A stretch of 64,000 bases of DNA, from NCBI GenBank assembly GCA_951406725.2, contig OX597825.1:3968001-4032000 (forward strand), read 5' to 3'. Shown piece by piece: positions 2,791-41,630 of this stretch; position 1 is the first letter of the stretch, and every line of letters begins with the position of its first letter. Below the pieces are notes generated by a model that did no database searches, was not told the DNA's origin, and saw only the letters and a list, made by a program, of their open reading frames with translations. The DNA is from Octopus vulgaris (taxonomy: Eukaryota). Position numbers and translations under genes: made by a program.

Positions 2791-3740
2791 CTTTGCACAG
2801 CTTCTAATGTTGGGGATGTACTACAGTGTCAGCTGTTCACTACCAGTGAGCTAAGGTAACACCTCTTATTTTGCGAGCACCTTCCGGAGTTTTCGAGCGG
2901 TTCCAAGCAGTTGTGTTTTCGAGATTGTTGCTCACTGTACCCAGGGCTCCGATAATTATTGGCACTATTGCTACCTTTTTCATCGACCACAACTGCTTAC
3001 CTTCGCAAGCTAACCTGTCATATCTCAACTTTTCTTTCTTCCTTATTGCATACAAGCCTGATCTTCTTACTTCTAGTAAAATGATCTTCAGTGACATTTC
3101 TAACATATGTATGTTTTCTTCTGCTCTAATGCAGTGTGTCCCCATCAACTCAGTCCTCTTCCACCTACTTTCCGGGATATATACAATGTGTTTGTGTCAC
3201 TTTTTGGTTGGACTCTCCCATATCTAGTTAGCAACTTCCTTGTCTTTCTGTCTAAGCTGTTTAGTTCGTCTACTGTCCATGCGATTACCCCTGTTCCATA
3301 TCTAAAGAGTGGAACTGCCCATGTGTTGATAGCTTCAATCTTATTCCGTCCATTTAATTTCGATTTAAGGATCTGTCTCAGTCTGCGCAAGTACTCCACC
3401 TTAAATGTTTCTGTAATTTCTTTCTCCATTAATTTATCCATATCCCAAATCCCTAAGCACATATAGCCCGTCTCTTGTTTCTGTTTCAGAACCTCTTCCA
3501 ACGGTATCCCTACTCCGTCCATACATTTGATTTTGCCTCTCTTCAATACTAACACATCGCACTTTTTTCTGTCCGAACTCCCTTCTTATATCAGCACGGG
3601 AGGTATATAATGTATCAACGAGGGAACTGACTTGGGATTCATCTTTACCATAAGGTTTGAGGTCATACGTGAATAACAAATGGTTGGCTTTTTGTTGGCG
3701 GCTCTTGAATACATAACCAGCCTTTGCTTTCCTCAGAATC

Positions 3741-6184: not shown

Positions 6185-6614
6185 ATTATTGGTTATTTTT
6201 TCAGCGACCACAACTGCATAACCTCCCAAGCCGACATGTCATATCTTTCGACCTTTCTTTCTCATCACATGTCAGCTGGGTATGCTATATGTATGATTCG
6301 GCATAGTTTGTTTTCTTTCTCAATTAACACTATGTCTGACTTCCTATTCTCTATCTCATGGTCGCACTGAATCATAACTATTAATTATAATTGCCTTTGA
6401 ACAGCTTCTAGCGCTGGAGATGTACTACGGTGTCAGCTGTTCACTACTAGTGAACTAAGGTAACACCTCTTATTTTTCGAGCACCTTCCAGAGTTTTCGA
6501 GCGGTTCGAAGCAGTGCTGTTTTCTGCACGTGCTCCACCCTTATTGCAGACACTATTAGTTCCACGTACTTCTCGTGATGTTTTCTTACTGTTTCCAGGC
6601 TCTGACAATTATTG
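6185..6614 (-). mobile_element. Dong-like LINE 3' fragment with permuted segment order
   Basis: 6396-6614 encodes ...IRVEHVQKTALLRTARKLWKVLEK* plus a 3' UTR matching 2791-2900. 6185-6377 encodes the preceding segment IQCDHEIENRKSDIVLIEKENKLCRIIHIAYP...LWSLKK. Confidence 0.85.
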
Positions 6615-20519: not shown

Positions 20520-20802
20520 GTACATTATTTACAATTGATGGATATTTGTCCTCATCTTGTTTGTTGTTAACACAACTTTTCGGCTATTATACCCTCCAGT
20601 CTTCATCAGGTGTCTTGGGTAAATTGCGAACCCTGTTTCGAACTTTCCCCAAGACACCTACTGAAGGCTGGAGGGTATATCAGCCGAAATTTCCCCAAGA
20701 TACTTGATGAGGATTGGAGGGTATATCAGCCGAAAGGTTGTGTTAACAACAAACAAGATGAGGACAAATATCCGTCAAATGCATTTAATGTAAATAATAT
20801 GT
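20520..20802. mobile_element. Penelope-like terminal fold-back with three degenerate minimal hammerhead motifs
   Basis: Inverted arms of about 100 bp. The minus arm reads GACAC-CTGATGA-AGACTG..TAGCC-GAAAAGTT-GTGTT. The plus arm has a 46-bp tandem duplication of the same motif (20644-20689 and 20690-20747). Confidence 0.7.
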
Positions 20803-38716: not shown

Positions 38717-38804
38717 TTTTCCATGCTGCAATTGTTTACGTTCCAGTACACAAACTAAGATCAGGCCGCTTGCTACGCAAGTACATCTCCGTAAGATCTA
38801 TATA

Positions 38805-38855
<51 letters not shown>

Positions 38856-38974
38856 ACAATCAAGGAACGGCCATAATAGGCCATTCACCCACTAGAAATA
38901 ACAGCCAAAGCTTCAACCGCAAATAAAAATTAATTCCGTAAACCAGGAGAAAATTTAAAAACATTTACCCTGTA

Positions 38975-39081
38975 ATTTCTTATACGATGTACCGTTTCAT
39001 CTGCTGATTAATGGTAAACTAACCTGATTAAATTAAATCAAGCCAATCTTCCAAAGGCCCTCAGATTCTTCAGTAAGAAAT
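38975..39081 (-). ncRNA. Type I hammerhead ribozyme (inverted copy)
   Basis: Reverse complement of 39809-39915 with an intact core. Confidence 0.85.
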
Positions 39082-39808
39082 AGCCCAAGTCGGAACAGAT
39101 ATTTTCACGAGGCATTTCCGACCTTGCCAAGGTTATATCTGACCTAAAATTTTCAAATCGTCGCACTCGCGCCAAATTTATCGGCAGCAAATAAATATAA
39201 GCCGTCGATTCCATTACGGAATTAACCAGAAAATTCATAATTAATCAATATAGGGTGCCAAAAAAATTTTGTAGAATTTTTTTGCCACCAGCGGCCTAGT
39301 GGGAAAAAATTAAATAGTCATAGACCATTTTTAAGTTCAACATCAACAATCAAGGAACGGATTTAATTTAATCAGGTTAGTTTACCATTAATCAGCAGAT
39401 GAAACGGTACATCGTATAAGAAATTACAGGGTAAATGTTTTTTAATTTTTCTCCTGGTTTACGGAATTAATTTTTATTTGCGGTTGAAGCTTTGGCTGTT
39501 ATTTCTAGTGGGTGAATGGCCTATTATGGCCGTTCCTTGATTGTTGATGTTGAACTTAAAAATGGTCTATGACTATTTAATTTTTTCCCACTAGGCCGCT
39601 GGTGGCAAAAAAATTCTACAAAATTTTTTTGGCACCCTATATTGATTAATTATGAATTTTCTGGTTAATTCCGTAATGGAATCGACGGCTTATATTTATT
39701 TGCTGCCGATAAATTTGGCGCGAGTGCGACGATTTGAAAACTTTAGGTCAGATATAACCTTGGCAAGGTCGGAAATGCCTCGTGAAAATATCTGTTCCGA
39801 CTTGGGCT

Positions 39809-39915
39809 ATTTCTTACTGAAGAATCTGAGGGCCTTTGGAAGATTGGCTTGATTTAATTTAATCAGGTTAGTTTACCATTAATCAGCAGATGAAACGGTA
39901 CATCGTATAAGAAAT
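39809..39915 (+). ncRNA. Type I hammerhead ribozyme, predicted cleavage after 39907
   Basis: Stem I ATTTCTTA/TAAGAAAT; CTGAAGA 39817-39823; stem II ATCTG...CAGAT; GAAA 39892-39895; stem III CGG-TACA-TCG; GTA 39905-39907. Confidence 0.88.
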
Positions 39916-40299
39916 TACAGGGTAAATGTTTTTTAAATTTTCTCCTGGTTTACGGAATTAATTTTTATTTGCGGTTGAAGCTTTGGCTGTTATTTCTAGT
40001 GGGTGAATGGCCTATTATGGCCGTTCCTTGATTGTTGATGTTGAACTTAAAAATGGTCTATGACTATTTAATTTTTTCCCACTAGGCCGCTGGTGCCAAA
40101 AAATTCTACAAAATTTTTTTTGCCACCCTAAATTGATTAATTATGAATTTTCTGGTTAATTCCGTAATGGAATCGACGGCTTATATTTATTTGCTGCCGA
40201 TAAATTTGGCGCGAGTGCGACGATTTGAAAATTTTAGGTCAGATATAACCTTGGCAAGGTCGGAAATGCCTCGTGAAAATATCTGTTCCGACTTGGGCT

Positions 40300-40406
40300 A
40301 TTTCTTACTGAAGAATCTGAGGGCCTTTGGAAGATTGGCTTGATTTAATTTAATCAGGTTAGTTTACCATTAATCAGCAGATGAAACGGTACATCGTATA
40401 AGAAAT
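40300..40406 (+). ncRNA. Type I hammerhead ribozyme, predicted cleavage after 40398
   Basis: Same sequence as the copy 491 bp upstream (CTGAAGA at 40308, GTA at 40396-40398). Confidence 0.88.
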
Positions 40407-40628
40407 TACAGGGTAAATGTTTTTTAAATTTTCTCCTGGTTTACGGAATTAATTTTTATTTGCGGTTGAAGCTTTGGCTGTTATTTCTAGTGGGTGAATG
40501 GCCTATTATGGCCGTTCCTTGATTGTTGATGTTGAACTTAAAAATGGTCTATGACTATTTAATTTTTTCCCACTAGGCCGCTGGAGGCAAAAAAATTCTA
40601 CAAAATTTTTTTTGCCACCCTATATTGA

Positions 40629-40660
<32 letters not shown>

Positions 40661-41630
40661 ACCAAGAAAAAAGCAACAATAACGGATCGGTAGTCTAGTA
40701 CAAGTGTTTCATACCATAAACATTTTATTTAAAGCTGCAAATATTACAGCAAATATAATGTTAAGTATTCATCAGCTAAATCACATATAGGTTTTCCAAA
40801 CATCTTAGAGAGTGTAAATATCCTTATGAAGTTATAGTAGTGAGTTCCATGAATCTGAAGTAAGATTCCAAGCAGACTCTATATGTTTTTCCAACAATAC
40901 AAAGTTTTTAAATTGATTATTAACATCCCAGAGAAGATAAATCTACTCATAAAGATGTGGATATAAGTTCCAAGAGACATGAGGAAAGATGCTGGTCATA
41001 CCATGGTTAAGTTCGCATCTAACTGTTGCAGGCAAAATTCTATAGTAGCAAGTAAGACAACGGTGGGTAGGTTTAGCTAAAGCAAAGGACATCAGGAGGA
41101 AAGAAATGGGGATGTAAGAAGGAATAAAGATACCACAGACACAGGTCAGTCTATATTTGTGGTGACAGAAAATCTAGGTCAGTGTAGAAGGAATCTTAAA
41201 TTCTTAAAAGAACTGTAAGTTTGACCACCACTAGCTCTGAACTGAGAAACTCACAGAAATAATGGTGGAATTAAGAATACAGGAAGATCAAAGGAAAGCA
41301 CTAAAGGGGTCATAGGTTATCGGTAGGGCGAGATACAGTAAGAGAATTAAGGTTAACACTAGAATAGAAGGTTATTTATTTATTATTGTTTCTATTTTAA
41401 CTTATGTTTATATATGGTAAGAAGGAATTTAGGTCAACATCTAGAGGTCAAATGAATTCAATAGCAACTGGTAGGGGAATCTTACTTATTCAAAATTTAT
41501 AGTGAAAATCAAATGTATCACTAAGGGAATAGTATTACATGTTAAATTCAGAATAGAGTTAGGAAAGATTAGCAGTTTATATGCTTTAAGTAATGTTAAT
41601 TAAATTGTCTATAAAGTCAATTAAAAAATT
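40661..41630 (-). mobile_element. Decayed Penelope-like element (GIY-YIG region and terminal repeat)
   Basis: Minus strand PWYDQHLSS and KLCIVGK recall the RWxxHxSSF and CxLCxxEK motifs of PLE endonucleases. AGCTGATGAA near 40770-40778, then a T-rich tail into (TA)n. Confidence 0.45.

Follow-up and report, generated by a model that had tools for sequence, protein, structure and literature searches.

A dispersed type I hammerhead retrozyme family of Octopus vulgaris with two-ended, Penelope-type insertions

RESULTS

A two-armed array of a 491-bp repeat

The stretch of DNA analyzed here (the window) comprises 64,000 nucleotides of Octopus vulgaris contig OX597825.1. Within it, TRF finds a plus-strand tandem of period 491 (2.6 copies, 98% matches; 39360-40633), in agreement with the initial annotation, which had also reported one copy on the minus strand. 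That copy forms an inverted arm running from 39360 down to 38852 (511 aligned columns, 98.8%). With unit position 1 set at 39908, the first nucleotide after the predicted ribozyme cut, the inverted arm consists of unit positions 114-491 followed by 1-132. The 3' end of the direct arm, at unit 234, is the ~237 end described below and leaves a 105-nt tail beyond the 132 end. The array is flanked by (TA)n at both ends (Table 1), and no reading frame of at least 200 aa was found across the arrays.

The insertion site is the TA tail of an older Hydra-type Penelope-like element (PLE), a neighbor that lies outside the retrozyme. This older element, of the Hydra clade, has 46 matches outside the window (79-96%) and carries its own complete type I hammerhead at 40694-40780, with 58 nt between the core halves. 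Elsewhere in the window, at 20639-20735, lies a 46-bp tandem of 2.1 copies, which we take to resemble a decayed minimal PLE hammerhead.

Table 1. Features of the array, its neighbor, and the young PLEs of the same genome
Feature	Coordinates	Strand	Remarks
Left half of (TA)n target	38799..38853	.	TRF
Inverted arm	38852..39360	-	5'-truncated at unit 114; fixed 3' end at unit 132 (38852)
Type I hammerhead 1, intact	38975..39081	-	Predicted cut 38983/38982
Direct arm, 2.6 units	39360..40633	+	5'-truncated at unit 435; 3' end at unit 234
3' half of hammerhead	39360..39424	+	Without CTGAAGA; alone predicted inactive
Type I hammerhead 2, intact	39809..39915	+	Predicted cut 39907/39908; loop III TACA
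Predicted cut-to-cut monomer RNA, 491 nt	39908..40398	+	-136.4 kcal/mol, z -4.04
Hairpin between the two fixed 3' ends	40092..40127	+	Unit 185-220; ~17 nt upstream of long end
Type I hammerhead 3, intact	40300..40406	+	Predicted cut 40398/40399
Right half of (TA)n target	40632..40660	.	TRF
Older Hydra-type PLE, 3' end	40661..41500	-	Neighbor, outside the retrozyme
Young Hydra-clade PLE	L264:2796-5747	+	~980-aa frames; also L265-L277
Neptune-like PLE	L070-L099; L053:6300-8731	-	Inserts in (TA)n; degenerate minimal hammerhead-like motif near 3' end

The hammerheads are complete and their helices are conserved

As initially described, the array holds three full hammerheads of 107 nt each. They are letter-identical and contain the complete core (CTGAAGA, GAAA, CGG-TACA-TCG) together with GTA, in RNA a natural hammerhead cleavage triplet, GUA (PMC1636495). 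Stem I is ATTTCTTA/TAAGAAAT, and the core halves are separated by 68 nt closed by ATCTG/CAGAT. The CUGANGA, GAAA and UH core elements, three helices and an open helix I place the motif in type I. The Rfam hammerhead models, proposed at the outset as a check, returned no match at the gathering score or at E≤10, and the hammerhead of the neighboring older element was missed as well; the long helix II likely explains why the retrozyme motif escapes them. An Rfam match to MIR869 reflects the inverted arms and was discarded.

The predicted monomer folds more stably than all 100 of its shuffles (z -4.04); stem III does not form in the MFE structure of the 107-mer taken alone. For covariation, 16 representatives were picked from 93 distinct motifs. 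Among these representatives, 96.3% of 562 cells were paired, compared with 30-45% in slid-partner controls, and both sides had changed in 9 of 36 pairs. Compensatory change was found in helix I (4 of 8 pairs), helix II (2 of 5) and helix III (1 of 4), mostly as one event separating two families and thus as few independent changes; the observed value for double-change pairs was reached in 51 of 500 shuffles. Co-variation of stems I to III and of the palindromic loop III extends to subfamilies with identities as low as ~75%, and core position N7 is A, T, C or G across copies. Judged from these comparisons, the ribozyme is under structural constraint.

Loop III is palindromic in most loci, reading TATA in 51 and TGCA in the other large classes. 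The window's TACA, which occurs in 4 loci, is non-palindromic and lies one step between the two. A palindromic loop III permits dimeric cleavage (PMC4209133), and in the available text of Li et al. (10.64898/2026.07.22.740005) only one of nine Xenopus dimers was cleaved in vitro. With a non-palindromic TACA loop and an MFE fold lacking stem III, the window copies may cut poorly.

The array belongs to a dispersed retrozyme family

A genome search with the unit, suggested in the initial annotation for copy number, revealed hundreds of scattered, dispersed copies with no ORF (228 matches in the species' own 2.8-Gb genome, from 40 scored of 1164 candidates). Most genomic units are 492 nt long, compared with 491 nt in the window. 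The young family accounts for 98 of the 120 loci examined, and a subfamily of 88-95% identity for 22. Divergence among units is 0.37% inside one arm, 0.40% across arms and 1.08% between loci. The 228 matches, the monomer folding (z = -4.04) and the compensated helices indicate that the array is not a product of chance.

An older sister family (L112-L141, first encountered at L061:2204-2580) has ~75% identity, a CCGAUGA core and a GUC triplet, and its stem III alternates between a fully palindromic CTATGCATAG and CAATGCATTG. At L053:6377-6462, on the minus strand, a long-stem-II hammerhead-like motif ends a TA-flanked repeat beside a retrozyme insertion. The family is also present in contigs of four organisms (A, C, D and E), and its depth is very high in those of A and C. 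Contigs from four runs whose RNA origin is a guess span 27-29 of 30 bins; ends, strand and circles are not readable from contigs. Differences between contigs of runs X1 and X3 and window positions 39780-40420 are skewed, with A>G at 17 of 27 places in X3 and T>C at 15 of 42 in X1. This skew resembles dsRNA hyper-editing and comes from low-depth contigs with many changes, in runs that are only guessed to be RNA and lack matched DNA.

The earlier assignment to non-LTR retrozymes, with one type I hammerhead per unit, is consistent with all tests run. At least two consecutive units contain a complete type I hammerhead (39809-39915 and 40300-40406), which is the definition of Li et al., and the family is non-coding, non-autonomous and dispersed, as retrozymes are; the unit lacks the RT plus GIY-YIG ORF of an autonomous PLE. 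The retrozyme class is already known, and the window family belongs to it. The unit had been thought long for the class, which holds against a range of 170-400 nt (PMC7229834) but not against the 51-972 bp given in the available text of Li et al. Our literature search, whose scope excluded subscription journals, Repbase, Dfam and supplements, listed neither a paper on a cephalopod retrozyme nor a study of where retrozyme insertions end, and entries for this or similar families may exist in those sources.

Insertions share two fixed 3' ends in TA targets

We compared arm ends across the family. In 30 of the 40 best-scoring loci the arms are opposite, with one end at 126-132, the other at 232-241 and a variable 5' truncation. 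The genome contains at least 236 exact junctions of the 132 end with TATATAT, compared with 0 for the reversed control, and a TA run follows the long end in 72 of 73 loci. The same two ends recur in the ~75% sister family. Junctions between arms mostly show an overlap of 1-9 nt or short filler. These loci therefore display 5' truncation, an inverted adjacent copy, a tail at one end and a microsatellite target, and the published PLE signature is an inverted truncated copy with a one-sided tail and a TA target (PMC8557442, available text). In vitro, such a tail is bounded by two internal RT start sites that serve both DNA strands (PMC11167929). By this footprint, the array is a single Penelope-type insertion with two back-to-back arms. 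The 491-bp tandem of the initial annotation stands, but what had been taken for a young array is one two-armed insertion and no local satellite.

Two priming sites on RNA are not the only conceivable source of opposite arms, as the inverted arm could be a fold-back copy of the first cDNA. Such a route would suit the 14 of 70 loci in which both 5' ends lie within 10 nt of one unit position, as well as apparent DNA-templated copying in L036, but it leaves the exact stop at 132 in at least 236 junctions unexplained. In addition, the 132 arm is often longer than the 237 arm (1040 versus 120 nt in L146) and hence was not copied from it, and the PAc RT uses two internal start sites on RNA and extends both DNA strands in vitro (PMC11167929). 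We consider fold-back copying highly improbable and retain two-site priming.

It is more improbable still that the family is an ordinary satellite, or a set of decayed PLE pseudo-LTR (pLTR) fragments in which the ribozyme is a passenger. Li et al. (10.64898/2026.07.22.740005), in the text available, do trace retrozymes back to pLTRs and leave room for local expansion of tandems, but here young insertions are dispersed with their own ends, a PLE frame is continuous with the unit in none of the screened loci (40 in one screen, 93 in another), and the helices are compensated across 25% divergence.

Several loci show further peculiarities at their ends and junctions. In a lineage with a change at unit 131 (L222-L233, L068 and L069), the short end is called at ~130, which suggests that the surrounding sequence influences where priming starts. 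The junction filler of L171, L172, L157, L163 and L177 consists of repeated TTTAAAAA units copied from unit 20-33 and resembles iterative snap-back synthesis. In L036, the same rearrangement, including ~27 nt from the right flank of this same locus, is present in both arms (3595-3660 and 6537-6600), and reflects either arm-to-arm DNA copying or an assembly fault.

Arms stop at, or pass, the predicted cut together

A 5'-end test on the 40 best-scoring loci (11/73) was set aside as biased by query phase and replaced by a sample of 93 loci chosen by 3' end (80 new, 13 earlier), which covers 96 of 100 listed 132-end junctions (of at least 236). On the first pass, 21 of 78 arms reaching a 21-nt window at the cut stop there, against a background of 3.3% per 21 nt (p = 7e-14; the window width was fixed after the first sample had been inspected). 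The remaining first-pass windows hold 0-8% of stops, and the one directly 5' of the cut holds 0/57. Twelve ends fall at positions 1-8 and 2 at 484-491 (p = 0.006, with the rearranged L036 dropped), and 7 of 70 later passes also stop at the cut (p = 0.008). Long-end arms cluster at 19-23 and not at the cut (5/72 in the 21-nt window, p = 0.19), frequently with AT-rich filler, which we read as end trimming.

The two arms of a locus behave alike. Among 70 two-armed loci (L180 and L218 excluded as rearranged; 21 of the 93 had no called partner), both arms stay 3' of the cut in 27, yielding short inserts, and both run across it in 35; the remainder are discordant, four in each direction (Fisher 4e-11). 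All partners of arms that stop at the cut likewise stay 3' of it (19/19). Because arms stop or pass together in 62 of 70 loci, crossing the cut appears to be a property of the template. Both arms were likely copied from one RNA, and templates were likely of two kinds, a cleaved linear RNA and an RNA continuous across the cut; the window insertion is of the continuous kind. From the many copies that end at the predicted cut, retrozyme RNA likely self-cuts in germ-line cells; these copies also indicate that a considerable fraction of templates were linear molecules whose 5' end lay at the cut.

The same pile-up might arise if the RT stalled at stem I on uncut RNA, in which case it would say nothing about cleavage in vivo. 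Half of the 24 clustered ends (positions 1-13) do lie at 9-13, the foot of stem I, and in the L152 and L196 flanks very short partner arms apparently terminate at the 185-220 hairpin. The other 12 ends, however, fall within stem I (1-8), where they break off sharply at 1, and the next 21 nt hold 0/57 ends; stronger hairpins show only 0-8% stops, and independent stalls would not couple the arms. Stalling is thus an improbable source of the pile-up, and self-cleavage remains our preferred explanation.

A circle or a multimer as the continuous template

An RNA continuous across the cut could be a ligated monomer circle or an uncleaved multimer. Seven of 120 loci together carry ten locus-private changes that are fixed in both arms, over 3-7 segments; clean partial private changes number two. 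"Private" is a sampling-dependent term here, as two of three initial both-arm private changes proved to be shared once more loci were included. Haplotype sites behave in an all-or-none manner, being fixed in 59 of 66 carrier cases and mixed in 7. On these patterns, we lean toward the ligated monomer circle.

The reading that does without a circle, in which long arms come from linear, partly cleaved multimers and arrays are homogenized later at the DNA level, is possible, though we think it rather unlikely. It could accommodate the cut-site stops on later passes (7/70), the partial variants that are common to both arms and in register in L048 and L062, and the apparent DNA-level arm copying in L036; in the available text on PAc (PMC11167929), moreover, the enzyme uses uncleaved RNA in vitro, with no need for a ribozyme cut. 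This reading fits poorly with the excess of fixed over partial private changes, with the all-or-none haplotype sites and with the 120 singletons in young loci that remain unhomogenized. Assembly polishing can itself homogenize or blur inner units. An ordered mixture in L068/L069 (T-A-A-A-A-T), once considered as the trace of a shared multimer template, was dropped as a probable polishing error: as such an error predicts, it affects only inner units in the two longest arrays, and the other 12 carrier loci are fixed. We also looked for RNA edits fixed into copies, which was unconvincing (A>G in 4 of 18 private fixed changes versus 7 of 120 singletons, with T>C also 4 of 18). The ligated circle is the template we carry forward.

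Candidate driver enzymes in the same genome

Starting from the older element that flanks the array (40661 onward), we reached a young autonomous Hydra-clade PLE family with open frames of 941-984 aa in 8 of 14 loci, all selected on the basis of a long frame or of paired copies. The L264 frame contains RWK, DKT, a CxCX5C linker, CxxC and CxH, matching the Hydra-clade criteria (PMC8557442, available text), and shows RT homology (E 1e-8) and no Pfam match; by its motifs, canonical hammerhead and (TA)n target, we assign L264 to the Hydra clade. Family members have a long asparagine-rich linker, a ~1.6-kb 3' UTR, a ~117-nt tail and a long-stem-II hammerhead. Their two TA-joined ends lie ~117 nt apart, with opposite arms in 6 of 14 loci. 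The endonuclease region yields 19,595 first-look candidates.

A second young PLE is Neptune-like, with an RVT_1 match; 148 of 150 scored matches are 100% identical over 175 aa. We rejected it as a driver, as it has no similarity to the unit and a single 3' end in 34/34 copies (counting ends downstream of the anchor motif only). Comparison of the unit with 30 Neptune-like and 44 Hydra-like loci found no sequence kinship or pLTR homology. Three apparent links were discarded as well. The likeness between retrozyme and Hydra ends does not exceed that of shuffles (495 and 254 of 500), the 35 nt that the sister family has in common with Hydra 3' UTRs are AT-rich and outside any ribozyme, and a PLE frame beside an arm in L195 is separated from it by a TA run, as expected for insertion into an old PLE. 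The ~117-nt end spacing of the Hydra-clade family is the closest to the 105 nt of the retrozyme. On this purely architectural resemblance, the Hydra-clade element is the leading candidate for the driver, at about even odds.

DISCUSSION

A model for retrozyme spread

We think it probable that this family is a self-cutting, dispersed, non-coding repeat, one RNA of which is copied from both ends of a DNA cut made by a Penelope-like enzyme. Arrays would be transcribed, and the ribozyme would cleave after GUA or GUC, as the copy end points suggest, probably in dimers formed via the palindromic loop III, in line with published models. An RT-endonuclease would then cut both (TA)n strands and prime inside the RNA at 132 and ~237, a step that fits the fixed ends and published in vitro behavior. 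On a cleaved linear RNA, both cDNAs would run off at the cut, leaving a short, ribozyme-less insert that is a dead end. Where the RNA continues across the cut, most probably as a ligated monomer circle, they would run on and form new arrays, such as the one in the window. The cDNA ends would be joined by microhomology.

A stricter version of this model is tentative and on balance doubtful. In it, one twin-priming Hydra-clade enzyme inserts both RNA forms, recognizing shape and spacing rather than any common sequence; self-cleaved linear monomers end as ribozyme-less dead ends, and new arrays arise solely from the ligated circle, by rolling reverse transcription from the two fixed internal starts. 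If it were true, ligation after self-cleavage would be the gate to propagation. Mobilization of retrozymes by PLEs through circular RNA has been put forward as a hypothesis only (PMC7229834; 10.64898/2026.07.22.740005), and the role of hammerheads in PLE biology is called unclear in the text available. The present family provides testable coordinates, with priming sites at 132 and ~237 and a cut mark in about a quarter of arms. The mechanism itself becomes testable through the two classes of template and through a candidate enzyme, young and intact, that this genome also encodes. Since long-stem-II hammerheads escape Rfam, such families are likely undercounted.

Comparison with known systems

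Like metazoan non-LTR retrozymes (PMC7229834; 10.64898/2026.07.22.740005), the family is built of non-coding tandem units that each carry a single type I hammerhead; its GC content is low, the monomer pairs with itself, PLEs co-exist with it, and it has no LTR features. It differs from those published, as far as the available text goes, in its 491-492-nt unit (against 170-400 in Cervera, and within the 51-972 of Li) and in core halves that lie 68 nt apart and are missed by Rfam. The two-ended TA footprint and the cut-site pile-up are absent from the available descriptions of Cervera 2020 and Li 2026. Homology to pLTRs was not found here among the Neptune-like and Hydra-like loci compared, against 24 of 57 Xenopus families in Li et al.

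With EN+ PLEs of the Hydra clade (PMC8557442), the family shares 5' truncation, partial tandems, an inverted adjacent copy, a tail at one end, a (TA)n target and a hammerhead near the 3' end. Unlike those elements, as described in the available text, it has no ORF, and the whole element is the repeat. Its tail measures 105 nt, compared with 30-40 bp in that source and ~117 nt in the young Hydra-clade family described above.

As in PAc Poseidon in vitro (PMC11167929), two internal starts downstream of the ribozyme would define the genomic ends, and both DNA strands would be extended. For PAc, the available text reports that ribozyme cleavage is dispensable and that no RNA-seq ends lie at the cut, whereas here 27% of arms end there. 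Finally, the motif shares with dimeric type I hammerheads (PMC4209133, available text) a short helix III capped by a palindromic loop, and is set apart by a helix III of 3 bp plus A15.1-U16.1, a helix I of 8 bp and a greatly extended helix II.
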